DNA from: a phage
Length of the DNA: 64,000 nt
Sequence record: PZ242158.1
Direction: 5' to 3' (one strand)
Part shown: positions 11,401-25,781 of the stretch, piece by piece
Numbering within the stretch: position 1 is the stretch's first letter
Layout of the letters: each line of letters starts with the position of its first letter
Program-made: the position numbers and the translations under genes
Notes under the pieces: model-generated
Databases searched by the model: none
The model's input: the letters and a program-made list of their open reading frames with translations, nothing else
What the model was told of the DNA's origin: nothing

Positions 11401-14072
11401 CTTTGCATGCGAATATGGATGGTGCAAGGTATCCGTTCGACGTTCCAGTTGCCAATGGGTACAGACGTGTCGTGATGATTATTAAATGCGATCTGATCGG
11501 AAAGCAAGTTCTTGCAGAAAACGGAACATCCACACATCCTTTTGAAGTTGCTCTGCACTACCAGTTTGCAGACTCACCATATGCGGGAGATAAAAGAATC
11601 TCCGACACAGACTCTAAGCGCTGTAAGAAAGTTTTACTTGGAGCCGGGTGGTGGTGGTACGAGTTTGATTTGACAGATAAGTTCACAGATGATACCAAAA
11701 CTCTCACAGGTATCCGTCTGGACCTTGGTGAAAACATGCACAAAGCTGTTTGTGATGGCACCTACGGTGATCCTACAGTATACTTGAAGTATGTCTCTCT
11801 TGAGCATCCAGAGGATGCCGTAATCGGTCCTAAACTGAAATTGTTCGGCTCATGGATTGCCAAGGATAGGGTAGGAATGGGTAAGAAAGTGAGAGGATTC
11901 CTGATAGACGCAGGGACAGAGGACATGCTGGTTAATGCAGTGTGGCCTACGCTAGAAGGCACCGCCTACAACAATGCAGCCAGGTCTATAAATTGGTTCA
12001 ACATTCACAGGGCTATGTGGACCACTAACTGCTACTTGTGGAGAGAGCTTAACGATCAGGCCTTTGGCTTTAGTGACGGCAGAAGGATGGCGATCATTTG
12101 CTGGACAACATTGCAAAGATGTTATGACCATGACTACGAGATTGGCGGTAGAGCATGGAAAGATATCAGAGATAGGGTTATATACAATTTTGCAGACGAC
12201 AACGGTGGTGGAGCATATAACTTTGGCACAAGCAGACTCATCCATTTGAACGGATCCTCAGCCTACAAGAAAGAAGGTTACTCCGGGTCCATGATCGAGT
12301 GGGGTCTGGTGAAAGATGCTCGTGTATTGATGGGCCAGCAACTTGCTGCTGCAATAGGTCCTAGTGCAGTGCAGTCTGCTAAACCAGCGTGGTTCGATAT
12401 CCCATTATGGTCCTCTGGAACACCAGGAGCTGCTGCAATCAACCCTACCACTGGGGATCTAGAAATCTCCTGGGAAGACCTGAAGCAGGTCGGTGGTTGG
12501 GACAAAACAGGGTATCAGGTTCAATGGTGGAGGGCTGACGGATCTTTAGCCGCTGATGAGTTTGTTAAGGACAATTTCTACACCATGTCCTCTGCAAAAG
12601 CACAGCAATTGTTCGGACAGGCTACTCCGTCAACAATCACCATGTCTATGTGCTGTAAAGACAACAGAACTGGAGCTCTGGGGCCAAGGGTTGCTAAAGT
12701 TTTCTCAGGTATTAAATGGAATCTACCTGTCCAAAGTATTTCATGGAAGCAAATAGGTGATAACAAGCTGCTGGTTACCCCTGCCTGTCAGTTCAACGCA
12801 ACTCTTAACGTTGATCCTGCTGTTGCGGCAAACTCAGCTAAAGCTTCTGACTTCTCTGTGTCTAACACTGCTATGGCAGATGTGAGGAAGATTGACACGC
12901 TGAACGCCAGAATTACCTGTAAAAACACTTATGGCACATTCCAAATCATCAACAACTTCACAGATGCTGATTCTAAGGTAGTGAGGACAGCAAGCCAGAC
13001 TCTGAGTTTAGGAACTCTGGCCTATGCGGCCCTGATCACCGAGCAGTCGGCAACACTCCAAGGAGGTGGTGTAGGCAAGTCCATTGCAACACCTGTGTGG
13101 AAGCCAAATGAGTGGGTTGTGTTTGATTTGACTGTGGACTTCTCCAGCGATAATAACTGGACATGGGTAAGGAATTGTTTGTCACAATTGATGGGAGGTC
13201 CAAGCTCCGTTAGTGATAGTCACGACTCTACTGACCCGAGTGTGTTCCAGGTAGGTAAAACTCACCCAGAGACTGGAGAAACGTTGCCTGACAGGAAGTA
13301 TGCGTTGGTTTGCATCTCTTACGGGAAGGCAGATGTCACCTTCTCAGGGACACACACTTATAACGGAACCTACAACTTCTCAAGGAAGTATAGTCTCAAA
13401 GCAGGGAACATTGTAGACGAGGTTGGTGTGCTGTATAATCCAGGTAACGGCATAGGGATTGTGGGTGGTAAACTGCAGATGCAGGAACCTTCTATTACCC
13501 CTTCCAACGTATCCGGTATTAGAAAGACTTGGGAAAGTAGTAATACCAACATTGCAACAGTGGATGCTGCCACAGGGCTGGTAACATTTAAAGCTACTGG
13601 GAATGTCACCATAAAGTTTGTAGTTACTGATGATGCAGGGCGCAAAACGTCTTCAACATCTTTTACTGTCAAACAGATGGCACCACAGTGGAGAATGTGG
13701 ATAGGTACAGCAACAAACGGGGCATACCCTAATCCGGCAGGTACTTCTGGTATGAAGACTTTCTCTACAAGCAAACCGATGGAGTACGGCAGCGGTCCTA
13801 AGGTAGGGCAGATGGTGTACTTTGGTGCGTATATTCCTGAAATTATAGGGCTTCCTAGAAGTCAGCTTCAGTTGCTGTTTGGGGCTGGTGTTGACGATCT
13901 TGCCACTTTCGGGTATAGCGACAACATCGAGGCTGCAAGGAGTTCAGGATGGGTAGGGTTCAGAATGGAGTCCGGAAAGGAAGGCAGGATTCTAGGGACA
14001 GCCTCTATAGGTGTTATGTTCCCTGGTGACCAGCAGTATCGTCTAGAAGCCTACGCAACCTTTTCTCGTTAA
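8436..14072 (+). CDS. giant fibre/adhesin-like virion protein with bacterial Ig-like (BIG2) domain
   Basis: 1878-aa ORF; near C-terminus SGIRKTWESSNTNIATVDAATGLVTFKATGNVTIKFVVTDDAGRKTSSTSFTV matches the BIG2 Ig-like fold pattern; last gene of structural operon. Confidence 0.6.
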   Translation: MLPIPLLKLGRHFLDKRGGIKELAVLSYPIDNSDGTSNTVSYVNSLAILFDDGQLNITGYNRFGECRTGDLDTINYPNEAAWNVDHVWRADRAFVIRTFDNKFFYIGCTAGLIGSEAAGGNDVCVREWTPLPEQIVTGLHLDTHPERLVEVMGGVNNTVWVIAAPEDDGMLHLYGSGNNTYGSLHVDKSQHATPVKIGETSESPETGPWKNPRINCEVHDNSVIFGGPNGFWIAGYDFLRNNSKNTLVYPAEHVTLDQFKGIPVGETWKGFMCGPNGAIIATERMHKPDDQQLVNVFYGQDVWGDDTWRSLNITYTHEVIMARGYGTSGIFFNNGTKQYRGFSRNLCNDIGAQSANNSPRANFIHYRALATAKFVEQTEPVSWTESVYFQGIHREGFLGTFTVVNGKLWWSGIPRGSFAGSNNLFGGRLNSQGFTEVPENWYKNVPVDSWGVDDIFDVNGVSSVSNIYIGDTVKMKLKPQPEGATFIIDKIELVNAAGTVVTDANYQFSTNWNHGGANEVVVTQYNRNVNRRGLYSVKITYHDKHGTGRTHTTRTLNWNTIVPAYPSNGKWHTVGRNKQFHVNDTVYFGLNAAQPVVEGDTSYMVRLHRMDAGSVTYDVTQEIYDQRRTTYDNVVKTQALWEFNPNGRGGKMLQVNEQNGTSLTVHEHPDPWPDPGKPNSGARTLKIVSHDAGYFGIRWEATVRYVDGTTNNIGITLGGTSEDNSLKIAYTPRGISIDNMDVVRNGYGDVNVKVTLGEHLGGERIIMYAFDHDPRTNGTYANQAWSYLINAPEPNTKEFYYGMKRDVCKKTGTHDWIAICVKDERTAWDEPVNRWFIGIPTRSDKYVAEYIVCMGGTNLNMCWNEDVNKYSDYDYMRDYSCNLWFNQTTGYPPRQARVNPAIFTDTQVFLTKQANEVQTFKNNYDPNKWFYNCYGAYFWGPAELPDSGSCFEAATYGSDYIMGQVKKYKMIPGPETLGNAVDPYINFAALHANMDGARYPFDVPVANGYRRVVMIIKCDLIGKQVLAENGTSTHPFEVALHYQFADSPYAGDKRISDTDSKRCKKVLLGAGWWWYEFDLTDKFTDDTKTLTGIRLDLGENMHKAVCDGTYGDPTVYLKYVSLEHPEDAVIGPKLKLFGSWIAKDRVGMGKKVRGFLIDAGTEDMLVNAVWPTLEGTAYNNAARSINWFNIHRAMWTTNCYLWRELNDQAFGFSDGRRMAIICWTTLQRCYDHDYEIGGRAWKDIRDRVIYNFADDNGGGAYNFGTSRLIHLNGSSAYKKEGYSGSMIEWGLVKDARVLMGQQLAAAIGPSAVQSAKPAWFDIPLWSSGTPGAAAINPTTGDLEISWEDLKQVGGWDKTGYQVQWWRADGSLAADEFVKDNFYTMSSAKAQQLFGQATPSTITMSMCCKDNRTGALGPRVAKVFSGIKWNLPVQSISWKQIGDNKLLVTPACQFNATLNVDPAVAANSAKASDFSVSNTAMADVRKIDTLNARITCKNTYGTFQIINNFTDADSKVVRTASQTLSLGTLAYAALITEQSATLQGGGVGKSIATPVWKPNEWVVFDLTVDFSSDNNWTWVRNCLSQLMGGPSSVSDSHDSTDPSVFQVGKTHPETGETLPDRKYALVCISYGKADVTFSGTHTYNGTYNFSRKYSLKAGNIVDEVGVLYNPGNGIGIVGGKLQMQEPSITPSNVSGIRKTWESSNTNIATVDAATGLVTFKATGNVTIKFVVTDDAGRKTSSTSFTVKQMAPQWRMWIGTATNGAYPNPAGTSGMKTFSTSKPMEYGSGPKVGQMVYFGAYIPEIIGLPRSQLQLLFGAGVDDLATFGYSDNIEAARSSGWVGFRMESGKEGRILGTASIGVMFPGDQQYRLEAYATFSR

Positions 14073-14083
14073 CAAGGGGGTAA

Positions 14084-14116
14084 ATAAAAAAAGGGGCCGT
14101 TTGGCCCCTTTCTTTT
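14084..14116. terminator. bidirectional intrinsic terminator between convergent operons
   Basis: AAAAAAA + AGGGGCC-gttt-GGCCCCT (7-bp GC stem) + TTTCTTTTT; A-run on one side, T-run on the other. Confidence 0.65.
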
Positions 14117-14121
14117 TATAG

Positions 14122-14322
14122 TTAGTAATACTCCCAACATGCCCCATCTTCAGACGGCTTGACGCGCTTACCTTTATGGTCAACATAGGTATAGCCACAA
14201 CCTTCACAAATAACAGGTGCTGCATAGCCTTCCTTCCACTGATCCTCAGTGATCAATCCTTTCAGATCTCCGCAGTCACGACCAAACAACTCTTCAGAAC
14301 AGTCTTTACAAAAATCAGCCAT
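14122..14322 (-). CDS. small zinc-ribbon protein
   Basis: 66 aa with CxxC...CxxC (CKDC, CEGC) spacing. Confidence 0.4.
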   Translation of the reverse strand: MADFCKDCSEELFGRDCGDLKGLITEDQWKEGYAAPVICEGCGYTYVDHKGKRVKPSEDGACWEYY

Positions 14323-14391
14323 CTCTATCAGTCTCCATATTTAACCAATCTATATTACATATTGCCGAAGAAACAGTATTTCATTTCATCA

Positions 14392-14610
14392 TCACAGATC
14401 TCCAACAACTTCCCAAATACCCCAGTGAGCATCTATATCCTTGATAAAGTATCTTTCTCCACGGTTTGTCCACACACCTATCCCAACTTTACCATCTATC
14501 CCATTGTATACATCTGCCTCATACTCTTTGCCCGGTGTAAAGTGTACACCCATCATAAGGGCTGTTATTCCATTAGGATTTTTAAATTTAACAAATTTTA
14601 CTTTGCTCAT
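14392..14610 (-). CDS. hypothetical protein
   Basis: 72-aa ORF packed tightly with neighbours; no motif recognised. Confidence 0.35.
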   Translation of the reverse strand: MSKVKFVKFKNPNGITALMMGVHFTPGKEYEADVYNGIDGKVGIGVWTNRGERYFIKDIDAHWGIWEVVGDL

Positions 14611-14611
14611 A

Positions 14612-14941
14612 TTACTTAATCCTTGCAGTTACAGTAGCGCTATACCCCATGTAGTTATGAGACATAAAGAATGTAAGCCCTTTAAGTTCAGGATTCTTTC
14701 TAAGAAATCGTTTCAATTTTCGAATGCAATTAACACCATGATCATAGTTTGAGAAATTAAATTTAATACCCTGCTCCATCATAGTGCACACTTCTTCATG
14801 GGTATGCCATTGTCTATCGTGGTCACAAAACCAGTAACCAATACCTTCTTTTTCTTGGATATGCAATCCCCAAAATACTTTATGCATTGGATATTTTGGT
14901 TTTCTACCATGATAATGTAGTTTAATATTCACATGTGCCAT
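14612..14941 (-). CDS. hypothetical protein (His/Cys-rich)
   Basis: 109-aa ORF, stop-start abutting downstream gene; no motif recognised. Confidence 0.4.
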   Translation of the reverse strand: MAHVNIKLHYHGRKPKYPMHKVFWGLHIQEKEGIGYWFCDHDRQWHTHEEVCTMMEQGIKFNFSNYDHGVNCIRKLKRFLRKNPELKGLTFFMSHNYMGYSATVTARIK

Positions 14942-15110
14942 TTTTTTGTTACTCCGTTCTGTATCTGTGATAATGAGAATAGCAAACTGGGGTGTGTGCT
15001 GTCAACAACATTTTTAAGCGTTTTGGGGAAGTTTTTTGAAAGGTGGGTGTAATCACAAGAGAGGGTGGAGTTATTGAAGGCACAGGCCTCTTTTGAGGCC
15101 TTAAAATCGA

Positions 15111-15491
15111 TTATGACACTTTGACGTAGCGCTCTGACAGAGCTGGAAAGCCAAAAGCAGTACCTATACTACCGTATGCTACCCACCATTGAAGTTCATC
15201 GTGACACCATTTTCCGATCAGGAAGGTGCTGGGGTAGCGGGTCAGTATTTTGGCATAAGCTTTAGGGTCTGCATCTTCTGGGATAATGATACTTGGAACA
15301 TCTTTGTTATGGCCACAGCAGCAGTTTAGAGTTTTCAATCCTGCCGCCCATAGACTCATGATAGGCTTAGCCATGCACTTATCAAGGCACACACGTTTTT
15401 TGCCGTCACGGAGCTTTTTAGGCACATCAACGATAACATTTTGATGCTTGGCACCTTTCACTTTCCAATTATAGGATTTACACTTGCACAT
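15111..15491 (-). CDS. hypothetical Cys-rich protein
   Basis: 126 aa with several Cys clusters (CKCK, CLDKC, NCCCGHNKD); possible metal binding. Confidence 0.4.
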   Translation of the reverse strand: MCKCKSYNWKVKGAKHQNVIVDVPKKLRDGKKRVCLDKCMAKPIMSLWAAGLKTLNCCCGHNKDVPSIIIPEDADPKAYAKILTRYPSTFLIGKWCHDELQWWVAYGSIGTAFGFPALSERYVKVS

Positions 15492-15688
15492 TTAATCAGT
15501 CTCCATCTAGAAAGCAATACTTTACTTAAAATCTTTGTCACCTATTACGATTGCACGAATCCACTCATTGTGATGTTCAATGGCGGTAAGGTGTAACATA
15601 ATGCAGTGATTGTCATTACCAAACACGGTGCGGTAAGCTTTAGCAGCACCATGATATAACTTCCACATCAGGTAATGATATCTTCGCC

Positions 15689-16168
15689 TCATGGCTCTTT
15701 CTCCGGTTCAGGATCTGGGTAATCTTCAATAATAAAGGGCCATCCGTTCCGCTTAGCCTCAGACTTGTACTCAATCTCCTTCATTGCAAACTCTAACTGA
15801 TTTTTAGCCGGAATACATGCCGGAGAATCATCAACCCAGATATCTGGGTAGATATCAAACTGCGCCAGGTAGGCTGCCTTCTGAACACCGCCAGTATAAA
15901 ACACACCAACATCGAGCTCCTTGCGCCAATACTCAATATCCACATTGTCTTGAGTAATGAATCGGAAAGTCACAAGGTATACTGTCCACCCCTCCTTCTT
16001 CAGGTCCCTGATCAGGCGGGAGAAGATGAAAGGGCTCGCATTAAACGTTCCATCAAAGTCAATGGCAATGATGTGCGTGCCGTGGCGAGTCTCATATGGA
16101 TTGCTTGTGGTAAGATTGCTGTAGTTAAAAGGGACCTCTTCCCCGCAGTAGCTGTAGTCCATATTCAC
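15689..16168 (-). CDS. HAD-superfamily phosphatase (possible nucleotidase)
   Basis: HAD motif I IAIDFDGTF (DxDGT), motif II-like VYLVT, motif IV-like DIWVDDSP. Confidence 0.5.
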   Translation of the reverse strand: MNMDYSYCGEEVPFNYSNLTTSNPYETRHGTHIIAIDFDGTFNASPFIFSRLIRDLKKEGWTVYLVTFRFITQDNVDIEYWRKELDVGVFYTGGVQKAAYLAQFDIYPDIWVDDSPACIPAKNQLEFAMKEIEYKSEAKRNGWPFIIEDYPDPEPEKEP

Positions 16169-16440
16169 ACCTTCTCGTTGATAAATTTACGGGCGGTTTG
16201 GTGAGTTGTTTCTGCTGTCTTCAGAATAATATTAATTTTATCGTCAAGATCATTCATCTCAGCAGTTAATTCAGGAATCTCTCCGGCATGCATAGTGAAA
16301 TCATACATAGACATGCCAAGAATCTCATTGATTCGGCGGTTGCATTCTGCAGCACGCTGGTTCATTTTCCAAGCTAACACCAGAGCCTCTTGCGTAGCCT
16401 CCAGTGCAAAGTCTAATACGTCAGCTTCTTCTTTCGTCAT
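16165..16440 (-). CDS. hypothetical protein
   Basis: 91-aa ORF overlapping neighbour by 4 nt. Confidence 0.35.
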   Translation of the reverse strand: MTKEEADVLDFALEATQEALVLAWKMNQRAAECNRRINEILGMSMYDFTMHAGEIPELTAEMNDLDDKINIILKTAETTHQTARKFINEKV

Positions 16441-16495
16441 CTCAGTCTCTCTTGTTGTATTGTTGGTAGGTGCATGAACACCTTATATCTCACTT

Positions 16496-17062
16496 TTATT
16501 CAAACTGCAATAGTAAGTCCACCACCGCGCTAGGTCTGTCAACAAATTCCCCAGGTCCACATGCCCACAGAGGGTATCCGTCTACATACCGCCAAATCCA
16601 ACCTGCAGTGTGTAGCTCAAGCAGGGCAGTACCGTCCTTACTGTCAACCACTCTTTCCCACAGTGTTGGGCAGCGAAGCTTGAGAATCGGATCACCTCCC
16701 TTATACCCGTCCATGTAGATACCCATTGCAAAGTTCAGCATCATCTTTTTGTGCACTGATCTCTTACTGAGAGTGCTCATCACTTCCTCTTTGTGAATGT
16801 TTGTAAGCTTCTCTTTGGCTACCCGCAGATCGTTGCAACCATTGTTCAGCAGATCTTCCAGACACTTGATCCGAAGGTCGTGAATGTCTTTGTCGTGTAC
16901 CGTTGGCACAGGGTCGTAGCGGTATAGCACTGTTGATACAAGGTTGCTCGGGTGTGGGTCTGACAGCAACCCATAACCCCAATACTCTTCTGTATCTGAA
17001 AGGACAAGACACCCAATGTCTCTGTCAAGCTTTCCTGTGTTGTAAGCCACATTGACCGCCAT
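16496..17062 (-). CDS. hypothetical protein
   Basis: 188-aa ORF; no motif recognised. Confidence 0.4.
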   Translation of the reverse strand: MAVNVAYNTGKLDRDIGCLVLSDTEEYWGYGLLSDPHPSNLVSTVLYRYDPVPTVHDKDIHDLRIKCLEDLLNNGCNDLRVAKEKLTNIHKEEVMSTLSKRSVHKKMMLNFAMGIYMDGYKGGDPILKLRCPTLWERVVDSKDGTALLELHTAGWIWRYVDGYPLWACGPGEFVDRPSAVVDLLLQFE

Positions 17063-17064
17063 GA

Positions 17065-17310
17065 CTATAGCTCCACTAACAAAGTGCTTTCAAAGTGCCG
17101 TTCATGCAGACCGTTGTAAGGGACCACTTCTACAACGCCATCACGGACATATGGGGCCATCATGGTGGTATAATCTCCAAACGGGTTGGTATTGTCACTA
17201 ACCACAACCACCTTCTGCCCTTCCTTGGCAGAGTGCCAAATAGATCTGCACTTCATCAGGTGTTCGAGAGCTCCAGGTAAAATTTTGTTACGTTCTTTAC
17301 GGGTCTTCAT
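17065..17310 (-). CDS. hypothetical protein
   Basis: 81-aa ORF overlapping upstream gene by 4 nt. Confidence 0.3.
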   Translation of the reverse strand: MKTRKERNKILPGALEHLMKCRSIWHSAKEGQKVVVVSDNTNPFGDYTTMMAPYVRDGVVEVVPYNGLHERHFESTLLVEL

Positions 17311-17756
17311 AATAGGTATAGCTCCTTATGAAAGTAGTCTTTTAATTTCTCACTGAGAAACCTCTTGATACCTTCCTCTAAAGTGTTTTCGATGTAGTCC
17401 AGCTTAACTGCTTCGATGGACATATCATAGATCGCCAGCTCTAAGCTGTCAAGTCCCATCATAGCATGAACCATAAGATTTTCATCTTCAGATACATTCA
17501 GGGGACTTCCTATAACATCTGTAGGTAGGATAGTTTCCCAATTATTCTGGGGGGTAGTTCTCCCACCCTCCACTTTACGGCGCAGTTCGAAGGTGTTCTT
17601 AGTGTAGAACACTTCATAAGAAACGATACGACTATCGCTCTCATAATAAACGAAGTTCAGGTAGGAGCCTAGCCGCAGTCGGCAAACTTCTACCCCAAAC
17701 CATTGTTTCTTATAAGAATTCAGGCTAATGCTGTCGCATTCACGCTTGCTCAACAC
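17307..17756 (-). CDS. hypothetical protein
   Basis: 149-aa ORF; no motif recognised. Confidence 0.4.
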   Translation of the reverse strand: MLSKRECDSISLNSYKKQWFGVEVCRLRLGSYLNFVYYESDSRIVSYEVFYTKNTFELRRKVEGGRTTPQNNWETILPTDVIGSPLNVSEDENLMVHAMMGLDSLELAIYDMSIEAVKLDYIENTLEEGIKRFLSEKLKDYFHKELYLL

Positions 17757-17772
17757 GGCTATCTCCTTTTTG

Positions 17773-18006
17773 TTAATCTTCGTAAATCAGGATCTCTGCT
17801 TTAGGTTTTCGTGCTTTCAGGTCCAGCTCTATCCAGTGCACCATAGCTGTTTCAAGAAAAACAGCCTGTATGCATCCGTCTTCAGCGTGCCCTACCAGCA
17901 TAACAAGATCTTCACCTTCATCATCTGCATCACGAACATACAAAATCTCTCCAGATTCAAAGTCTTTCACAACCTGATTGCTGGATAATTTACGAATTTT
18001 TGCCAT
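17773..18006 (-). CDS. hypothetical protein
   Basis: 77-aa ORF. Confidence 0.35.
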   Translation of the reverse strand: MAKIRKLSSNQVVKDFESGEILYVRDADDEGEDLVMLVGHAEDGCIQAVFLETAMVHWIELDLKARKPKAEILIYED

Positions 18007-18007
18007 A

Positions 18008-18271
18008 TCAGAAACCCTCTAAAAAGCTCTTGTAGAAAATAATCTCAGTATCCACACCAGTCACGATCTTGTCGTTCCTGATTTCATCTGTAAGATAGGT
18101 GTCAAAACGCAGCACCTGTGTGGTATTGTCACACATCCACTCGGCTGTGACCATGGCAAAAATCTTAGCATCTTCATTATCCGGTGTGAATGTTACCACC
18201 TCACCGCATTTAAACTTTTCGATAGGTTGCGTGTTAGCTTTTGGTTCTGCAATAGTGATTTTTGTAGTCAT
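18008..18271 (-). CDS. hypothetical protein
   Basis: 87-aa ORF. Confidence 0.35.
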   Translation of the reverse strand: MTTKITIAEPKANTQPIEKFKCGEVVTFTPDNEDAKIFAMVTAEWMCDNTTQVLRFDTYLTDEIRNDKIVTGVDTEIIFYKSFLEGF

Positions 18272-18537
18272 TACTCTTCCTTCATAGTTTCACCAAATAC
18301 TTCGATACGAGCGTCAAGCTCTGTTGCTTTCAGCTCCCCAACAAAATCTTTTAGTTCTTTCTCGTCCAGATCGTAAGCCCACACACAAGAAGAACATGCA
18401 GATTTCACAATCAGCAGCGTAGATACACGACCTGACTCTGTGATCATGCTCACAATGGTTCCCACAGGGAACGTGTTGATAGCTTTTTTAACTGGGCGTT
18501 CAGCTTTAATTACTACCTCTGTTGCCATAAATAACAT
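18271..18537 (-). CDS. hypothetical protein
   Basis: 88-aa ORF, stop-start overlap with neighbour. Confidence 0.35.
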   Translation of the reverse strand: MLFMATEVVIKAERPVKKAINTFPVGTIVSMITESGRVSTLLIVKSACSSCVWAYDLDEKELKDFVGELKATELDARIEVFGETMKEE

Positions 18538-18543
18538 CCTCTC

Positions 18544-20004
18544 TTACTTAGCGTACTCGATTAATTCCACAGTTTTACCAAAGCTAGGGATATAATTTTT
18601 ATTATACCCTTCGGTGAGAACCCATAAAGTATCGTACTTTTTCCACTTGTTGTCAACAGCCTTTTGTTCAAAGTTATGCTCAAAGTATAGGTCGGTCAGG
18701 ACGATGACATCTTTTGCATTTGGTATGTTGGCATCTAGATACTCGAACACGCAAGCAGCTGTTGTGCCCCATGTTGAGTGGACCTCATAGTTGATCATTT
18801 CGTCTATGTTGCCGCGAGTATATACTTTAACCTCTCCGACTTCAGTTGACCAACAGAACATTGTAACCTTAAACTCTTTATACAGATTGCACAATCCGGT
18901 GATTTCATTGAACATTTTCTTTAAAGTTCTTTGAGAGATTGAGCCAGAAACGTCTAAAGCTACCACAATATCTATGGTGTTTTCCGGATTACGACCAGGA
19001 ACAATAACGTGCTGGTTCTTGTTTATAGCCCCAACTTTTCGCATTGTGCTGGTCAAAGACCCAGATCGGCGACCAGGTTTTCTGTAGGTCAGTTCAGCCT
19101 TTCGTTTAGACAATATGCGTTGCTTAATAATGTCTATATAGTTGATTACAGGCTTACCTCTGTTCTTGACGAACTCACGCACCGCCTCAGGGCAACGACC
19201 TCCGGAAGCTTGCATTGCTGCCTCCAGCATGTCACCAGAGTCCTGCATGGCCTGATCTTTATCAGATTGGCTGATTACAGGTTGTGGCTGATCATACCCC
19301 ATAGCCTTTCCAAGATCATCACTGGTGCCACCGTTCCCACTCATGTGATCATCGGTTTGTCGCTTATCCCCTTGAGAGTTCTCACCTTTACCGCTCTTAC
19401 TTTTACCGTTATTCTGATCTCTTTGCTTATCAAGAACTGCATAAACGTTCTCAGCAATCCATCCATGAAACTTCATGTCGCAGTAGCAGCTGGCTAAGAA
19501 GCCAAAAGGCTTACCTTCCACAAACGTAGTGCTTTTCCCCTTCGGGAAGAAAACACAAGGAGGCTTACTAAAGTCAACCACAAGACCTGTGTTGATAACG
19601 TGATCACAAGCAATATTGAACAGTTCCGGCTCAAAACTTTTACCACGGACCAGGTGATCACAGATAATATGCCCCACCTCATGTGACAGAAGAAAGGCCA
19701 CCTCCTTCACAGATTTGGGGGAATAGAAAACCTCAGCCATCCCAAACTGTTCGTCAGTTAGAGAAGCCTTAAGAATAGCCCTGCGTTCATCAGCCAATCC
19801 CATAATGAACTCAGGACTGTAATAGATGCGTTTATGGTCGGTTGCCATGGTAGAGCACCATGTGTGGTTTTCTACAAACTGCAACCCTGACAGTAGCGTG
19901 CCATAAAACGGCAGCTTTTCAAGGAGATACATACGTGCAGCCTGCAACATTCTCAGGGCATCATCTTTCTGTGAGGCAATGATTTCTGAACTTCTGCTAT
20001 CCAT
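18544..20004 (-). CDS. VWA-domain protein with N-terminal HExxH metallopeptidase-like motif (CobT/DUF2201-like partner of MoxR-type ATPases)
   Basis: SHEVGHIICDH in N-terminal half; MIDAS-like VVALDVSGSI in C-terminal half; start moved to ATG 20004 (GGAG SD) because the TTG at 20025 lies inside an upstream hairpin. Confidence 0.6.
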   Translation of the reverse strand: MDSRSSEIIASQKDDALRMLQAARMYLLEKLPFYGTLLSGLQFVENHTWCSTMATDHKRIYYSPEFIMGLADERRAILKASLTDEQFGMAEVFYSPKSVKEVAFLLSHEVGHIICDHLVRGKSFEPELFNIACDHVINTGLVVDFSKPPCVFFPKGKSTTFVEGKPFGFLASCYCDMKFHGWIAENVYAVLDKQRDQNNGKSKSGKGENSQGDKRQTDDHMSGNGGTSDDLGKAMGYDQPQPVISQSDKDQAMQDSGDMLEAAMQASGGRCPEAVREFVKNRGKPVINYIDIIKQRILSKRKAELTYRKPGRRSGSLTSTMRKVGAINKNQHVIVPGRNPENTIDIVVALDVSGSISQRTLKKMFNEITGLCNLYKEFKVTMFCWSTEVGEVKVYTRGNIDEMINYEVHSTWGTTAACVFEYLDANIPNAKDVIVLTDLYFEHNFEQKAVDNKWKKYDTLWVLTEGYNKNYIPSFGKTVELIEYAK

Positions 20005-20016
20005 TAAAACTCCAGA

Positions 20017-20033
20017 AGGGGCCAATGGCCCCT
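20017..20033 (-). terminator. weak hairpin terminator after HNH gene
   Basis: AGGGGCC-aat-GGCCCCT hairpin; downstream on the - strand TCTGGAGTTTT, only moderately U-rich. Confidence 0.3.
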
Positions 20034-20037
20034 GTCA

Positions 20038-21081
20038 TTATTTAACGTGTTTGAAAATACCTGCCAACTCGGTCATTGTCATGCGGGTGGTCTTCATAAG
20101 ATCTGTCATAGCTTTCTCCATAATTGGAGATACTACCATAAAGTTACCTTTGGTGAAACCTTTATTCCAGTCGGTCACTAACAGGGGCTTAAGTCCAGCT
20201 CCGAGACGTTCACCAGTTAAAGCACAGCATTTGCGAACATACGAACTCTTAAATTGGCTGAACGACAGATCAACTTTCATACCTGCATCGTAGAACGTTT
20301 GACAATAGAAAGTGTAAGCCTTAGCAACCTCAACATCATCAGGCAGTGCAGGAACCTCTTCTGCAATCTCCTCTTCGACCTCCTGAGGCTCTTTTTCCTC
20401 TTCAGAGTTCTGTTCTCCAATTTCTTCTGTCACAGTTTCGTTTACGATGTCTGAAATGTGTTTGTTGGCTGCACGATCAGCCATGAAATTTTTAAAGTCC
20501 TGCATTGGTGACATATCTTCTTCCTCTTCGTCAAAAAGTGCTAGTTTATCTTCTTCTGTCCCGTATTGCAAGATGAAATCTTCAAAAGTATAATCACCTT
20601 TCAATTTCTCCATACGCTCTTCGCTCAGGTGAAGCATCATCTGCTGGACAATTTTTCGATCAGTTTTGTCTTTTATCAATATTGCAGTCTTTTTATCTAC
20701 CAGACAGTCTTTCAGAGCGTTGCACCTCAACCCTACCACACAACAATTGTCAATTGCGTAAGGACCTTCATCATCTATCCGCTCCAGAGATGGGTAGAAA
20801 GGATTCCCCAGCCCGTTTTCATCTGTGTGCATGTCGAAAGGTATAAGAGTATAGTCGCATACCCCCTCTCCTAAAAGTTTTTTACCAAATAGGAGGTATT
20901 CTTCCCATGACAGGTTGAACTCTATATCTCGTTTCCGTGCATTATTTTGTTTGCGTCTGTATTTTTTGAGCAGGCGCTCTAACTCTTCTGGTGTATAATA
21001 TTTTTCAAGATTCATGAGTTGTCTCTCGTGCTCTATAGGTGAAGAAATCTTATCAAGTGCCTCGACAGATGTCAACCTCAA
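20038..21081 (-). CDS. free-standing HNH-family endonuclease with acidic C-terminal extension
   Basis: SLERIDDEGPYAIDNCCVVGLRCNALK (xRID...N...N..K HNH pattern); start uncertain (alternative ATG at 21015). Confidence 0.5.
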   Translation of the reverse strand: MRLTSVEALDKISSPIEHERQLMNLEKYYTPEELERLLKKYRRKQNNARKRDIEFNLSWEEYLLFGKKLLGEGVCDYTLIPFDMHTDENGLGNPFYPSLERIDDEGPYAIDNCCVVGLRCNALKDCLVDKKTAILIKDKTDRKIVQQMMLHLSEERMEKLKGDYTFEDFILQYGTEEDKLALFDEEEEDMSPMQDFKNFMADRAANKHISDIVNETVTEEIGEQNSEEEKEPQEVEEEIAEEVPALPDDVEVAKAYTFYCQTFYDAGMKVDLSFSQFKSSYVRKCCALTGERLGAGLKPLLVTDWNKGFTKGNFMVVSPIMEKAMTDLMKTTRMTMTELAGIFKHVK

Positions 21082-21088
21082 AAACGTG

Positions 21089-21117
21089 TTGACTTTACTA
21101 TAAATCTACGATATAGT
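21089..21117 (+). promoter_or_regulatory. sigma70-like promoter for the + strand early/replication operon
   Basis: TTGACT, 17-nt spacer, TATAGT; in the divergent intergenic region. Confidence 0.5.
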
Positions 21118-21157
21118 GCACCCATTCGAAAGAAAACGAACACAGGAGCACTTAATC

Positions 21158-22057
21158 ATGGCAAATCTTAACAGCTTTAGCACTCGGTGGAAACAAGATA
21201 TCACAACCAATCTCTCAGCAGGTGATATCCTTTCTGCAATTTACGAGGCTTTGGATGATAAAGCTACTTCAAAATCGGTTTGTACCAACCCGCTAATTCC
21301 TATAGTAATGAAGGTTATTGAGCGTAGGCTGGTATCCGGATCTGATAAGTGGACATATCTGGATAATGGAGGCCACACTTACTCCAACGGCTATGTCGAT
21401 ATAAAAGTAGAATATGCGGTATCATATCGCCGGAGCGGCTCTGTAACTTTCAACTTTTCTGGAGGTTTCCGATCTCTGGCAACTTCACCTTTTGTTTCCT
21501 CAGAGGAGAGGTTTGAACTTCCGTTCCTTTGGATGATGGCTAACGCGACAGGCAAAACCCCTGTAAGCATTCGCGTAAAATACAACTACAACGGATCTAG
21601 TAAGATCTATGCCGAGAGTGTCTCAGCAAGTTTTTATTTTGTGATGGGGGATGGAATCCTCAAACATATAAAGATGTGTGATATGCATGATGTTATAAAT
21701 GAAGTGACTGATAAGAATGTTCTGGTGAAGGATCTCAACAATTTTTATACACCGGGAGACTATTACGTCAACCGTCCACTGTGCATCTTTAATGCTGCAC
21801 ACCCTTTAGGTGAGTATTTGATTGCCAATAGTGATATTGCCAATAACCGCTTCGAGGTAGCAAGAGTACAGAATGAGGTATTGACATCTTGCAAGAGCGG
21901 TGATAAGTTCACCGAAGAAGAGATGGGCGTTTTAGAAATGATGGGATATAAGTGTAGCCTTTGGGTAGATGAGGTGTTTAATGACGGCATCTATGGACAG
22001 GATATTTACCCGTTAAAGAAGTATACTGATTCCAGTTTAATTTACGCGGAGATTTGA
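21158..22057 (+). CDS. hypothetical protein
   Basis: Start moved to ATG 21158 (MANLNSF, SD ACAGGAG) because the tracked start at 21116 overlaps the promoter -10. Confidence 0.45.
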   Translation: MANLNSFSTRWKQDITTNLSAGDILSAIYEALDDKATSKSVCTNPLIPIVMKVIERRLVSGSDKWTYLDNGGHTYSNGYVDIKVEYAVSYRRSGSVTFNFSGGFRSLATSPFVSSEERFELPFLWMMANATGKTPVSIRVKYNYNGSSKIYAESVSASFYFVMGDGILKHIKMCDMHDVINEVTDKNVLVKDLNNFYTPGDYYVNRPLCIFNAAHPLGEYLIANSDIANNRFEVARVQNEVLTSCKSGDKFTEEEMGVLEMMGYKCSLWVDEVFNDGIYGQDIYPLKKYTDSSLIYAEI

Positions 22058-22332
22058 CTATGATGAAGGCATGTGGTAGTGTATACTATGTGGGTGAAAA
22101 TGTTCAGGCAGACAATGTGTGGAAATCCATTAAGTCCACCACCGATGATGCCTTCTTGAGCGGGTTATGTTTCCCCAATCCAGGGGACATCCTCCCTCAC
22201 CCTGGAGATTTTGTTGTTAACAAGATGGACGGTTATACCGTGTGCCTGATGGTTGAAAAAATCTTTTTAGACACTAGACACAATCACCGTCTTGTGTTAA
22301 AATTTCAAGAATGTAAAATGACAATTGCCTAA
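22054..22332 (+). CDS. hypothetical protein
   Basis: 92-aa ORF with 4-nt overlap to upstream gene. Confidence 0.35.
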   Translation: MTMMKACGSVYYVGENVQADNVWKSIKSTTDDAFLSGLCFPNPGDILPHPGDFVVNKMDGYTVCLMVEKIFLDTRHNHRLVLKFQECKMTIA

Positions 22333-22345
22333 GGAGGCCTTACCG

Positions 22346-22702
22346 ATGTCTAAAGCTACTTATCGTGCAGCTATTTACTGCAATGAACACCCCATCAATA
22401 ATGATGGTCACTGCCTTTTTAAAGAAAATCAGTTGGGCTGTATTGTCCTACCTGATGAAGGGAAAGGTTATCTGATTGCATTGACAGGGTTCGAGCCTGA
22501 AGCTTTGGAAGCCAATCTGGACTATCTGGTAGAAGAGGGTGCTGCAGACCTGGTTTCCAATGGCCTCGCCATAAGCCTTGACGAGGTGGAGCGCTTCATG
22601 GGCAATTACCGTGTAGTGCGTGAGTTTACTATCGAGGTGGAAACTCCAGAGTGGGGTAGCACTGAAACTAACGCCGAAGAAAAAGAAGAGGAGGCAGAAT
22701 AA
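22346..22702 (+). CDS. hypothetical acidic protein
   Basis: Start at ATG 22346 after AAGGAGG; acidic C-terminus EEKEEEAE. Confidence 0.4.
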   Translation: MSKATYRAAIYCNEHPINNDGHCLFKENQLGCIVLPDEGKGYLIALTGFEPEALEANLDYLVEEGAADLVSNGLAISLDEVERFMGNYRVVREFTIEVETPEWGSTETNAEEKEEEAE

Positions 22703-22959
22703 TGAAAGTGCAGATCTTGACTAATGCCGAGAAGATGTTTATTGAAGATACACCTTTTGAAGCTGGTGAGCTACAGTTCGTTTATTTTGTTGACTTAGAT
22801 AAGGTGTTCCCTGCACTGAATCTGGGTCTGGATGAAGTTCCTCATAAAGTTTTGTGCCAAGTTGTTCGTGCCTTAGCGGCAGATGGGGATTTCCACACCC
22901 TTGAAGATATCCAGACCTACGGGTATCTTGAACTGCAACGAGAAGAAGAGGTGGACTGA
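22702..22959 (+). CDS. hypothetical protein
   Basis: 85-aa ORF, TAATG overlap. Confidence 0.4.
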   Translation: MKVQILTNAEKMFIEDTPFEAGELQFVYFVDLDKVFPALNLGLDEVPHKVLCQVVRALAADGDFHTLEDIQTYGYLELQREEEVD

Positions 22960-22961
22960 TA

Positions 22962-23342
22962 ATGGCCCGGTGGAAGACAACAGTTGACCTTCATGATCAG
23001 TGGTTAGGACGCATCGCTGAAGACGGGAAACTAGTAGAGTGGGACAATAAGCATGTTAGCGAGTTGGCAAGCATTGTGGCTGGCAAGTTACGCTCCAAGT
23101 TCCCTGAACAACTGGATCCTGATAGTTCAAAGTTCGATCCTGAGTTGGAGGATGTTGTATACTACTTCGATACCGTGGATGACTACGATGCGTGGTTTGC
23201 AGCACGGGAGCTTTACCCACAAGGCTCTGCTATGCGCCAGATGGAAGAAGATTATCCTCCGTGTGAGCAATTCAATAGTGCAATGACTTGCCTCTATGAT
23301 TGGGCAGATAAGAACCTTGTCTGGATTCGGACTGCATTTTAG
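22962..23342 (+). CDS. hypothetical protein
   Basis: 126-aa ORF. Confidence 0.4.
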   Translation: MARWKTTVDLHDQWLGRIAEDGKLVEWDNKHVSELASIVAGKLRSKFPEQLDPDSSKFDPELEDVVYYFDTVDDYDAWFAARELYPQGSAMRQMEEDYPPCEQFNSAMTCLYDWADKNLVWIRTAF

Positions 23343-23386
23343 TGGGCAGTAATGGCGGCAAGGATGCTGCTTAAGGAGTAGTAGAG

Positions 23387-23656
23387 ATGTTATACCAGCA
23401 ATATGAACTTCGTGCAGAAAAAGAGTTAAATTTTGACAAAGATATTCACAGATATTATTATGGGAAAGTTAGAGGGCAAGCAAGAAAGTGTACTCCAACA
23501 CTCTTTTATGCCAGCAGACGACTAGCGCCAGAAGAGGCAACAGCAGAAAGGGTTGCGTTCAACTGGAAAGTCACGTATAATATTGACAGATCCGATGTGA
23601 TATCTGTTTTGGAAAACTTTGAAAACACTTACACACAAGTAGAGGACTTTTACTAA
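23387..23656 (+). CDS. hypothetical protein
   Basis: 89-aa ORF, SD AAGGAG. Confidence 0.4.
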   Translation: MLYQQYELRAEKELNFDKDIHRYYYGKVRGQARKCTPTLFYASRRLAPEEATAERVAFNWKVTYNIDRSDVISVLENFENTYTQVEDFY

Positions 23657-24840
23657 TGTCAAGAAACGTATTCGAAAGTGGTCAAATCACTGTCCGTGAG
23701 TTGCCAGCTATTATTCAGTTTGCCCAACGTCATAGCCGATCTGTCCTAATTTTGGGACCAATGGGTGTGGGTAAAAGCCAGGTGATGAAGCAGATCGCTG
23801 ATAATATGTTCGGTGAGCGAGATGACAACCTTGTTGACGTGCGACTGTCAGATAAAGATCCTGCCGACTTATCTGGGCTACCTATCCCTGTAGAAGCGGA
23901 TGGAACTACACGTACAGTGTTTGCAATTCCAGAATTTTGGCCTGCGGATCCTGACTGGAGCGGAATTATCTTTCTGGATGAGCTCACTCATGCAGATAAC
24001 TACCTGCAAAAGGTTGCAATGCAAATTATGCTTGACCACAAGTGCGGCACCTATGCATTCCCTAAGGGTTCTGTTTTTGTGGCTGCGGGTAACCGTTCTA
24101 CAGATGGTGCGGTTCTTTCGGCGCTCGAAGCCCCTCTGGCTAACCGTTTTATCATTGTAGAGGTTACAAGCAATGCAGAGGTGTTTATTGAGGACTACGC
24201 ATTCCTCAACGGGGTTCACTCCTCTGTAATTGGGTATCTGAAAAGAGTTCCATCAGCTATTGATAATTATGAGGCTATGGCTGAGATTAATTGTCCATCT
24301 TTTGCCACACCACGATCTTGGGTTGCTGCATCTGACATCTTGCACGATTTTGACAGCGGTATTATTTCTGACGCTATGGCCCGTGTTCTTCTACAAGGTG
24401 CTATTGGTCACACTGCAGCGGTAGAGATCTGGACTTACCACACCAAGAAACGTAATTTACCGGAAATCGGTCGGATTATGGCAGGTGGCTGCAAAGAATA
24501 CGTAGGTCCTAAGCAGCCAGACATTTTGTGGATTCTTGGATCTGAAGGTTGTATCGCTATTCGCAATATGATGGAAAATGCAAGTATCTCAGACGAAGAT
24601 CTTGTCAGCTGCGTGGCAAACTTCCTCGATTTCCTTTGGGAAAACTTCAAGGACGAGAACCGAGATTTTGTATTCTCAGTCTTTATGGCGATGATGAAAC
24701 CTAATGCCTTAGGAAATGCCTTGCTTATCGGTAAAGGGCGTGACAAGATTGTTGCTCAGCTGATCAAAGCATACCCAAACCTGATGAAGATTGTAAAAGA
24801 GTTTGGTGAAGAGTTTAGCGCCATTTTGGCTAAAGCTTAA
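23656..24840 (+). CDS. AAA+ ATPase, MoxR/AAA_5 type (CobS-like)
   Basis: Walker A LILGPMGVGKSQ, Walker B IIFLDELTHA; about 390 aa as expected for MoxR-type ATPases. Confidence 0.6.
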   Translation: MSRNVFESGQITVRELPAIIQFAQRHSRSVLILGPMGVGKSQVMKQIADNMFGERDDNLVDVRLSDKDPADLSGLPIPVEADGTTRTVFAIPEFWPADPDWSGIIFLDELTHADNYLQKVAMQIMLDHKCGTYAFPKGSVFVAAGNRSTDGAVLSALEAPLANRFIIVEVTSNAEVFIEDYAFLNGVHSSVIGYLKRVPSAIDNYEAMAEINCPSFATPRSWVAASDILHDFDSGIISDAMARVLLQGAIGHTAAVEIWTYHTKKRNLPEIGRIMAGGCKEYVGPKQPDILWILGSEGCIAIRNMMENASISDEDLVSCVANFLDFLWENFKDENRDFVFSVFMAMMKPNALGNALLIGKGRDKIVAQLIKAYPNLMKIVKEFGEEFSAILAKA

Positions 24841-24850
24841 GGGGGGTTGT

Positions 24851-25231
24851 ATGGCTAAAGTAGGTAAGCGGGGAAACTACCTGGTGGTATTGACCGAGGA
24901 GCCGGAGAAGGAGTACGAATGCAGCTCCACTTGCGTGATCGATATCCGAGAAAAAGATGTAGATGAAGTCTGGTTTAAAATATTGGACGCTTGCGATAGC
25001 AGTGATTATTTCTTCATTTATGTCAACGATAAGGCTGGATTCTTCCATGACGACGGAGAGTTGCCGTATGAAATCTATGAACTTGTAGAGGCTTGCCATC
25101 GTGGAGATGCGGAGTTGTTTGGCCTACGGCTGAAAAGCGGTAAATTCTTCTATCAAGATGAGTGCATAAATCTTCATAACTTTGTAGAGGGAACTTGCAA
25201 CGATGGAGAGATTTTGGCACACTACGATTAA
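24851..25231 (+). CDS. hypothetical protein
   Basis: Start chosen at ATG 24851 preceded by GGGGGG SD (track start 24803 overlaps upstream gene). Confidence 0.4.
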   Translation: MAKVGKRGNYLVVLTEEPEKEYECSSTCVIDIREKDVDEVWFKILDACDSSDYFFIYVNDKAGFFHDDGELPYEIYELVEACHRGDAELFGLRLKSGKFFYQDECINLHNFVEGTCNDGEILAHYD

Positions 25232-25244
25232 TTTCTAAGACCTC

Positions 25245-25271
25245 CCCCGCTTCGGCGGGGATTTTCTATTT
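25245..25271 (+). terminator. intrinsic terminator
   Basis: CCCCGC-ttcg-GCGGGG (6-bp stem) followed by ATTTTCTATTT. Confidence 0.6.
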
Positions 25272-25280
25272 GGAGTTATT

Positions 25281-25781
25281 GTGAAAATTAAGATCTTTGC
25301 TATTATTTTGAGCGCATTTTTATCGCTGCCTGTTGTTGCAGCACCAAAACAAAAAGTATATCATACTTGCAAGCCCTCAGATACTAAGGAAAACATTCTG
25401 GCATGCAATATCTACAGGGAGGCTAGAGGGGATGGCACGATGGGTATGCTGGCATCAGGGTTTGCCACACTAAACAGGAAATCTCACCCCAAATACCCAG
25501 ACACTATAAGAAAGATTGTCTACCAACCTAACCAGTTTTCGTGGACAAACCACGGCAAAATTTTTAAGGTGACAGAAAAAGATTCATGGGATCACGCTAA
25601 AAGTCTTGCAAAGATGCTTCTAAAGGTCTATAATAACAACCATGTTGCATACATGGCTATGGACATAACAGGTGGAGCAACACACTACCATACAACCAAA
25701 GTACGACCGAAATGGGCAAAAAAGATGCAGAGGACAGCTCAATTCGGGAGTCATATCTACTACAAGGAGCGCAATAAATGA
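25281..25781 (+). CDS. secreted cell-wall hydrolase, SleB/CwlJ (Hydrolase_2) type
   Basis: N-terminal signal-peptide-like MKIKIFAIILSAFLSLPVVAAP; Hydrolase_2-like motifs YREARGDG, ATLNR, QPNQFSW; GTG start with GGAG SD. Confidence 0.55.
   Translation: MKIKIFAIILSAFLSLPVVAAPKQKVYHTCKPSDTKENILACNIYREARGDGTMGMLASGFATLNRKSHPKYPDTIRKIVYQPNQFSWTNHGKIFKVTEKDSWDHAKSLAKMLLKVYNNNHVAYMAMDITGGATHYHTTKVRPKWAKKMQRTAQFGSHIYYKERNK

Follow-up and report, generated by a model that had tools for sequence, protein, structure and literature searches.

A MoxR-VWA gene pair related to N4 gp24/gp25 is encoded divergently in an rV5-like coliphage

Results

Phage sequence record PZ242158.1 (64,000 nucleotides, called the window here) encodes on opposite strands, 3.6 kb apart and with seven genes between them, an AAA+ ATPase and a partner protein in which an HExxH motif is combined with a VWA-like domain bearing a MIDAS (an adhesion site that depends on a metal ion). 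Sequence comparison identifies the two as homologues (orthologues) of coliphage N4 gp24 (ATPase) and gp25 (vWFA/DUF2201), and gene linkage provides firm evidence that they constitute one functional system despite their separation in this phage. The interpretation favoured here, with moderate confidence, is that the two genes are the phage version of a MoxR-VWA two-component machine, which would carry out MIDAS-targeted remodelling and processing during early or middle infection and whose ancestral operon has since been split; it is built on homology, on catalytic and MIDAS residues that are intact, on gene linkage, and on how the rearrangement is laid out. Both open reading frames (ORFs; 486 amino acids on the minus strand and 394 on the plus strand) are present as claimed in an earlier reading made from the letters alone (the sequence-only reading), and the motifs quoted there translate exactly.

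Linkage and distribution of the pair

Searches with the two proteins against N4-like phages (tblastn) gave expect (E) values of 3e-14 and 4e-21 at 22-29% identity. In that group gp24 and gp25 are two of the 14 core genes and are transcribed in the middle phase (PMC4193335); both have been listed with function unknown (PMC4193335, PMC2784036). Over phage records as a whole, tblastn found the partner in 728 and the ATPase in 821, with near-equal partner/ATPase counts by genus (Escherichia 217/216, Pseudomonas 104/108, Pectobacterium 26/26, Cronobacter 17/17, Achromobacter 17/17), and the hosts of the phages that carry the module range over Escherichia, Roseobacter, Vibrio, Pseudomonas and Bacillus.

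The order ATPase-then-partner, with the two genes adjacent and co-directional, is found in Certrevirus CR9, SSBI34, PcCB7V, N4-like Jura, jumbo phage RaK2 and metagenomic contigs L003-L007, and the same adjacent order recurs in distant contigs that were left out of model building (L012-L014; ATPase E 1e-65 to 1e-81). When IMG/VR was scanned with the ATPase profile, 80 loci were recovered, nine of them uninformative because a contig end lies too near the ATPase; the partner is directly downstream in 70 of the 71 informative loci, and the sole exception is a 98%-identical rV5-like contig. In bacterial genomes a DUF2201 gene directly follows the ATPase in 47 of 80 loci; the other 33, mostly from Sulfurovum, have no DUF2201 gene in the fetched stretch, and some of these contigs end soon after the ATPase. 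The claim in the sequence-only reading that the two proteins are a MoxR-type ATPase and its VWA/HExxH partner is supported, and because the homologues are adjacent across lineages, the split rV5 genes are taken to remain one system. That the two genes are functionally unrelated and merely occupy the same early region, as their distance, their opposite strands and the seven intervening genes of the window could suggest, is very improbable: with the one exception just named, the viral loci counted above and all other sampled lineages place them next to each other in the same direction, their distributions over phage genera match, and the MoxR-VWA partnership is well established at the family level (PMC13036017, PMC9976466, PMC7159879).

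The nearest cellular relatives of the ATPase are in Campylobacterota chromosomes, where they stand amid housekeeping genes rather than prophages (L063, the Sulfurovum sp. CS9 chromosome; L094, Arcobacter sp. YIC-310; and most of L017-L095). Directly upstream of the Campylobacterota ATPase is a conserved repeat protein of ~450 amino acids (LASNxxTP repeats) that has no Pfam family and no homologue in the phage loci. In one 578-kb JGI phage-like contig (L012) the pair lies amid genes for ClpS, a ClpP-type protease, HSP20 and a T4-type RNA ligase.

The ATPase

Taken alone, the ATPase of the window gives at most sub-threshold P-loop matches in NCBIfam and Pfam (bpMoxR 15.1 bits, cutoff 27), and a phmmer search of the PDB matched Clp/p97 Walker A regions and nothing else; homologues, profile and structure were therefore required to assign it, and its MoxR-class membership is established only transitively. 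PHROGs places it in phrog_1297 ('ATPase'). Its homologues include hundreds of proteins of ~360 amino acids (E ~1e-44, 31-36% identity) with AAA_3 and AAA_5, and the chromosomal homologues of Arcobacter and Sulfurovum (32-40% identity) pass AAA_3 with 36.7 and 38.1 bits against 27. Walker A (GPMGVGKS, G34-S41, 23755-23778, plus strand), Walker B (IIFLDE, I104-E109, 23965-23982, plus strand; D108 and E109), sensor 1 (N146), the arginine finger (R164) and sensor 2 (R220) are invariant in an alignment of 32 sequences that reaches down to 27% identity to the window protein.

Structural comparison points the same way. The family profile found midasin AAA domains as its top PDB match (E 1.4e-10), and with the AlphaFold2 (AF2) model (predicted local distance difference test, pLDDT, 82) Foldseek ranks 1-13 were NorQ, from the 2026 NorQD cryo-electron microscopy structures, and CbbQ2 (E 1e-7 to 1e-6, TMt 0.57-0.65). 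The model predicts a helix-2-insert hairpin at residues ~75-90 (strands 75-81 and 84-90, between beta2 and the Walker B strand) and a short pre-sensor-1 hairpin at ~129-134 ahead of strand 138-145; a C-terminal helical domain (~285-394, ~110 residues) with a conserved NFxxFxxxNF motif falls outside the region aligned with NorQ/CbbQ. Sequence and model thus support the view that ORF 23656-24840 encodes a divergent MoxR-class AAA+ ATPase. The sequence-only reading had called it MoxR/AAA_5: its Walker motifs stand and the MoxR class is upheld through homologues and structure, whereas the AAA_5 gathering score is not reached (16.7 bits against 22). The record of Salmonella phage SSBI34 names its gp24-like ATPase (L097, MZ520832.1 119198-120418) 'ribosomal protein uS19', evidently by mistake.

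The VWA/HExxH partner

Both halves of the partner that the sequence-only reading had described are recognized by Pfam above the gathering scores, with DUF2201_N at 99.6 bits (cutoff 23.2, E 3e-28) and DUF2201 ('VWA-like domain') at 43.6 bits (cutoff 26.4, E 3.8e-11); these matches are far beyond chance. The predicted structure (pLDDT 79) has a confident N-terminal helical domain, a disordered linker, a helical middle region and a C-terminal alpha/beta domain. The MIDAS is complete, and D351, S353, S355, T414 and D438 are all invariant in the partner alignment; in the N-domain H108 and H112 are invariant, E109 and H117 are conserved at 90% or more, and R120, N130, A132, D134 and N138 are invariant too, so that both candidate third zinc ligands, H117 and D134, are conserved. 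An exhaustive profile search returned 27,104 cluster representatives at E <= 1e-3, and among 145 diverse representatives of the family DxSxS is present in every one and HExxH in 136 (94%). Compared with N4-like partners, those of the rV5 type have extra insertions in the peptidase domain (alignment columns ~100-135 and 190-210).

A single-sequence search of the partner found no relative of solved structure, and the full-length profile gave just weak integrin VWA matches in the PDB; the N-domain profile gave no significant relative there, with E 0.05-0.3 to M48 proteases and minigluzincins (Ste24, BepA, HtpX, minigluzincin) around the HExxH helix. A fold search with the whole model returned VWA domains, in agreement with a VWA Rossmann-like fold, together with a full-length alignment to Ro60 at a template modelling (TM) score of 0.24. 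The latter, a low-scoring match, is regarded as architectural only, and with these matches the fold of the peptidase domain remains unclassified.

Proteins of this family commonly carry the label 'HNH endonuclease' (phrog_1314 and many RefSeq phage records), and for the partner of RaK2 the record refers to the likeness with a 'putative HNH endonuclease' from a roseophage. A nuclease nature of the DUF2201 partner finds support neither in Pfam nor in the fold search, and the label is probably a propagated error.

Gene layout and the divergent promoter region

The source of the window is, by nucleotide similarity, an rV5-like Vequintavirus coliphage: the best megablast match of region 18000-25500 is Escherichia phage JohannBauhin (Bas53, Vequintavirus) at 98.8% identity, and among the 122 phage records matched, 115 have at least 80% coverage, all at 90-99% identity. 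The JohannBauhin record labels the VWA/HExxH ORF 'putative metallopeptidase', the ATPase ORF 'ATPase (MoxR ATPase)' and an intervening ORF 'anti-sigma factor', and the rV5_ev168 record uses 'MoxR ATPase' and 'Anti-sigma factor'. A further sixteen records that bear the name 'Campylobacter phage' (MG0656xx, host C. jejuni) are ~96% identical to E. coli rV5-like phages over the 7.5-kb region; their host labels look doubtful on this comparison.

Tail-fibre genes fill the first 14 kb of the window and are followed by a leftward block of small genes (~14000-21015) whose operon is directed toward them, while a rightward block starts at 21158 and continues to the SleB, rIIA, rIIB and helicase genes. 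Between the members of the pair lie a gene for a protein like T4 Srd, a 299-amino-acid ORF (21158-22057) and five small ORFs (Table 1); the sequence-only reading had counted an HNH gene and five small ORFs, of which the small ORFs stand, but the tally omitted the 299-amino-acid ORF and falls short of seven genes. Its claim that the pair flanks a divergent promoter region agrees with the presence of back-to-back promoter-like sites in the 142-bp intergenic region between the divergent operons (21016-21157), where 13 bp separate the -35 boxes of the two candidates. Ro1 has TTGACA-17-GATAAT at the equivalent position, and the PVP-SE1 record annotates a promoter there.

Table 1. Coordinates of the pair, its functional residues and neighbouring elements in the window
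Feature	Position	Strand	Basis or remark
gp24-like MoxR-class AAA+ ATPase, 394 aa	23656..24840	+	homologues, profile, AF2 model, Foldseek
gp25-like partner, 486 aa	18544..20004	-	DUF2201_N and DUF2201 Pfam matches
Putative Zn-metallopeptidase domain DUF2201_N, partner residues 1-~198	19411-20004	-	
HExxHxxxxH motif H108 E109 H112 H117 (HEVGHIICDH)	19654..19683	-	translation, alignment
Disordered Gly/charged linker, partner residues ~199-228		-	pLDDT ~30 (model)
C-terminal VWA-like domain, partner residues ~340-486	18547-18987	-	
MIDAS DxSxS D351 S353 S355 (DVSGS)	18940..18954	-	translation, alignment
Further MIDAS residues T414 and D438	18763-18765 and 18691-18693	-	
T4 Srd-like protein, 325 aa from ATG (to 21081 with TTG start)	20038..21015	-	first gene of leftward operon
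Hairpin, GC-rich perfect palindrome AGGGGCC-AAT-GGCCCCT	20017..20033		between Srd-like stop codon and VWA ribosome-binding site
Sigma-70-like promoter candidate TTGACA-17-TAAGAT with TG, facing Srd-like and VWA genes	21047..21075	-	consensus match
Sigma-70-like promoter candidate TTGACT-17-TATAGT, facing operon ending in ATPase, SleB, rIIA/rIIB	21089..21117	+	consensus match
Six ORFs from promoter region to ATPase	21158-22057 (299 aa), 22060-22332, 22346-22702, 22702-22959, 22962-23342, 23387-23656	+	

Recurrent neighbours of the pair elsewhere are genes of nucleotide metabolism and replication, among them those for dCTP deaminase (N4-like phages), thymidylate synthase (RaK2, L004), ThyX, orotidine monophosphate decarboxylase and DNA polymerase (L013), and HD-phosphohydrolase and thymidylate kinase (Ro1, PVP-SE1, CR9). 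This context bears on the proposal that the pair is a chaperone of virion assembly, helping to fold or assemble capsid, tail or fibre proteins as proposed for p618/p892 of Acidianus two-tailed virus (ATV). Such a role would suit the heading of the leftward operon toward the tail-fibre block, the four virion proteins encoded beside the gp24/gp25 homologues of roseophage RPP1 (PMC4193335), and the tie to tail development of what is, as far as the citing review describes it, the sole viral MoxR-VWA pair with experimental data (Scheele et al. 2011, cited in PMC7159879). We nevertheless regard it as quite unlikely, as the genes share early/middle blocks with Srd-like, rIIA/rIIB and helicase genes and follow sigma-70-like promoter candidates, N4 gp24 and gp25 are middle genes, the neighbours across lineages serve replication and nucleotide metabolism rather than virion structure, and the same pair occurs in non-phage chromosomal settings in Campylobacterota.

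The Srd-like gene

The first gene of the leftward operon had been taken in the sequence-only reading for a free-standing HNH endonuclease gene, possibly a strain-specific insertion; neither proposal survives comparison. BLASTP aligned its product with T4 Srd at E 1e-7 over 143 amino acids (the N-terminal repeat) and at 1e-3 for a second repeat, with identities of 21-24%, and in PHROGs it matched phrog_3118, phrog_1400 (Srd, E 1.9e-9) and phrog_4592 (E 5.3e-14). The labels of these matches are Srd, 'decoy of host sigma70' and, at a greater distance, endonuclease VII, and 'HNH' appears in PHROG labels alone. The Srd N-terminal domain occurs twice in the protein (~8-110 and ~249-295, joined by a highly acidic linker), which shares with T4 Srd the motif C-x-Y...SLERxD...GY...N...N. 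The ORF has no Pfam family at E <= 0.1 (the Ro1 homologue and T4 Srd have none at E <= 1) and no match among PDB sequences. The HNH identity was rejected since there is no Pfam HNH profile match and no conserved catalytic histidine: an alignment of the window, Ro1 and PVP-SE1 proteins with T4 Srd contains no invariant histidine, and the position of the HNH/EndoVII histidine reads SLERID, SVERID or SLERFD. The two domain copies are, judged from these alignments, degenerate endonuclease-VII-like domains without the histidines. The gene is conserved across Vequintavirinae and full-length in 209 phage records, and in Vequintavirus, Mydovirus and Seunavirus it stands first beside the divergent promoter region; because its position is the same in three genera it is not a mobile strain-specific insertion. 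Srd has been reported to stimulate RNase E.

Another proposal is that the pair is a host-takeover or counter-defence protease, which at an early stage of infection would recognise and destroy a host protein, for instance a sigma factor, a nucleoid protein or a factor of defence. We consider this improbable. Expression is probably early, beside the Srd-like gene (a putative host-takeover gene) and upstream of rIIA/rIIB; a peptidase domain is joined with an adaptor-like MIDAS; the pair stands amid ClpS, ClpP and HSP20 in one 578-kb phage contig; and MoxR-vWA systems are common in conflict systems (PMC7159879). On the other hand, its core status in N4-like phages and broad host spread look like those of a basic function, whereas accessory anti-defence genes are usually more variable, and PADLOC gave no defence-system match.

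Other genes and elements between the pair

Pfam assigned no family to any of the six rightward ORFs between 21158 and 23656. The ORF at 22962-23342 (plus strand, 126 amino acids, phrog_6318) is the sole small ORF of the rightward operon kept in Ro1 (gp021) and PVP-SE1 (gp223), and because in the window and in both these phages its place is upstream of the ATPase (immediately upstream in Ro1), its product is a possible third component of the system. The 299-amino-acid product of ORF 21158-22057 bears the public label 'putative alpha 1-3 fucosyltransferase', yet matches neither Pfam nor NCBIfam; its sole similarity is a weak local match to the 'thymidylate kinase' gene of PVP-SE1 (33%, 48 amino acids, E 5e-4), which occupies the same position in its operon. 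The best sigma-70-like match of the region, TTGACA-17-TATTAT (11/12; 23433-23461, plus strand), lies within ORF 23387-23656, ~200 bp before the ATPase start, and could be an internal promoter for the ATPase; the hairpin at 20017-20033 may act within the leftward operon as a partial terminator or in RNA stability. Rfam and tRNA scans of the window gave no matches.

The split and its origin

The divergent layout was found in Vequintavirus (the window) and in its sister genera, represented by Mydovirus Ro1, Seunavirus PVP-SE1 and Avunavirus Av-05, and in no other lineage examined, and as the pair is adjacent in all outgroups, the split is the derived state. In Ro1 and PVP-SE1 the ATPase is the last gene of an operon that opens with thymidylate-kinase-like and HD-phosphohydrolase genes. 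The block from HD-phosphohydrolase to ATPase is common to adjacent-type (CR9, SSBI34) and split-type (Ro1, PVP-SE1) phages, and in CR9 and SSBI34 the partner comes directly after it; because both types share this block, the breakpoint is placed exactly between the ATPase and VWA genes. In the split layout the partner gene stands after the Srd-like gene, across the short intergenic region. Inversion of a whole block carrying the downstream neighbour of the VWA gene was rejected, as BLAST matched CR9_128 to none of the genes that lie downstream of VWA in Ro1 or PVP-SE1; only the breakpoint between the two genes is a supported part of the rearrangement, as judged from these gene orders.

Discussion

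The pair would thus have begun as one operon, ATPase then VWA, and a rearrangement in a common ancestor of Vequintavirus, Mydovirus, Seunavirus and Avunavirus, with its breakpoint exactly between the genes, would have put the VWA gene across a bidirectional promoter region; placed there, it is proposed, the pair would therefore still be co-expressed. For the working of the machine, NorQD and CbbQO offer the closest guide: in these systems a hexameric ring binds one VWA partner via a pore finger and a C-terminal contact, the MIDAS attaches to an acidic patch on the client, and ATP hydrolysis works on the linker of the partner (PMC9976466, PMC13036017). By analogy with NorQ-NorD and CbbQ-CbbO we infer hexamer formation, docking, proteolysis, the timing of expression and the nature of the target. 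The phage ATPase would form a hexameric ring on which one copy of the partner docks via its VWA domain; the intact MIDAS would grip an acidic residue of the target protein; ATP hydrolysis, passed through the flexible linker of the partner, would remodel the target; and the N-terminal HExxH zinc-peptidase domain would then cleave the target or the partner itself. The module would be expressed early or mid infection with genes of DNA and nucleotide metabolism, not with virion genes.

Several points weigh against this interpretation. The ATPase alone misses every Pfam gathering score, AAA_5 included, with no AAA_3 match. The promoter-like sites are consensus matches and not mapped starts, and their regional count (18, against 11.9 +/- 3.8 in shuffled sequence) is not significant. 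The sequence-only reading had left the role of the pair in a phage open, and the searchable literature (DUF2201, PF13203, COG3864, rV5 MoxR, N4 gp24/gp25 essentiality, phage transposon-sequencing preprints) yielded no functional experiment on the family. Finally, the catalytic glutamate is replaced (HQxxH, HNxxH and others) in 9 of the 145 family representatives (P0190, P0220, P0229, P0230, P0234, P0240, P0251, P0256 and P0286), all of which keep both histidines and the MIDAS DxSxS. Because these nine lose the glutamate yet keep the MIDAS, proteolysis may fall outside the conserved core activity of the family, and metal binding may be more conserved than proteolysis.

Loss of the glutamate with both histidines and the MIDAS retained is also what a metallochaperone might show. 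In that case the pair would remodel a metalloenzyme, encoded by the phage or the host and active in nucleotide or DNA metabolism, for insertion of a metal cofactor, as NorQD does for iron in nitric oxide reductase and like CobST, BchID and CoxDE, and HExxH would be a metal-binding or hand-off site and not a protease. The nearest structures are indeed NorQ and CbbQ, MoxR-VWA couples typically act in cofactor insertion (PMC13036017, PMC9976466), and enzymes of nucleotide metabolism recur as neighbours (N4-like phages, RaK2, L004, L013, Ro1, PVP-SE1, CR9). We judge this role unlikely all the same: no one metalloenzyme neighbour is kept across lineages, the ORFs between the pair in the window all lack a Pfam family, HExxH with its glutamate in 94% of relatives fits catalysis, and the association with nucleotide genes may merely reflect a common early/middle block.

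Within the two-component remodelling machine favoured here, a more specific and rather doubtful proposal is that gp24/gp25-type pairs are an uncharacterised kind of two-component ATP-dependent protease, in which the MoxR ring would pull the linker of a VWA-anchored HExxH peptidase while the MIDAS selects the substrate. If true, such a protease would be a core device of N4-like, rV5-like and RaK2-like jumbo phages and of many marine phages, processing a key host or phage protein during replication, and some bacteria, notably Campylobacterota, would run the same machine with a third, repeat-protein partner.

The pair itself is already known, which the sequence-only reading had not recognised: public phage genomes carry its annotation, Pfam and PHROGs have families for it, and it has appeared in lists as N4 gp24/gp25 since 2009-2014; the small additions made here are the lineage-specific split and corrected labels. 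The latter concern two widespread names, 'HNH endonuclease' on DUF2201 proteins and 'HNH' on the Srd-like gene. The module is present in more than 700 sequenced phage genomes, with ~27,000 family cluster representatives, and is among the few universal N4-like genes. Phages of the rV5 type (BASEL Bas53-type) offer it as a naturally unlinked pair, in which each gene can be deleted without polar effect on the other.

Comparison with known systems

Among the proteins compared, T4 Srd differs from the Srd-like protein of the window, which has two domain copies and an acidic linker. For the pair itself, the N4-like and RaK2-type gp24/gp25 proteins share the DUF2201_N plus VWA-like architecture of the partner and a place in an early/middle region near rIIA and rIIB; their genes are adjacent or nearly so in one operon, whereas those of the window are on opposite strands and 3.6 kb apart. 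Another virus-encoded MoxR-VWA couple, to which the likeness is by description, is p618 (MoxR-type) and p892 (VWA) of ATV, an archaeal virus for which the citing review (PMC7159879) gives a proposed role in extracellular tail development, while the pair in the window stands in a non-structural context. The same MoxR plus vWA core, sometimes with a peptidase effector fused to vWA, occurs in bacterial MoxR-vWA ternary conflict systems (VMAP, iSTAND, FtsH and beta-propeller types; PMC7159879), but the window has no VMAP, iSTAND or beta-propeller third component, and the effector of those systems is C-terminal, whereas the peptidase of the phage partner is N-terminal to VWA. In Midasin/Rea1, AAA_5-type modules likewise work with a MIDAS domain; unlike the two-protein phage pair, it is a single giant eukaryotic polypeptide with six AAA modules in cis that serves ribosome biogenesis.

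CbbQ/CbbO and RavA/ViaA resemble the window pair in joining a MoxR ATPase to a MIDAS-VWA adaptor, which binds an acidic client residue (PMC9976466), and differ in their clients and in lacking a peptidase domain; a LARA domain is part of RavA, and CbbO is a much larger protein. NorD and the predicted model of the phage partner are alike in their succession of N-domain, disordered linker and MIDAS-bearing VWA (PMC13036017), although sequence identity between NorQ/NorD and the window pair is 15-20%, the phage pair has no nitric oxide reductase target, and the phage ATPase has an extra C-terminal domain of ~110 amino acids relative to NorQ. NorD has no HExxH peptidase-like domain, and the N-domain of the phage partner has HExxH. 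It is because the partner follows the plan of NorD but has this peptidase-like N-domain that ATP-driven, MIDAS-targeted remodelling and processing is favoured as the probable activity of the pair.

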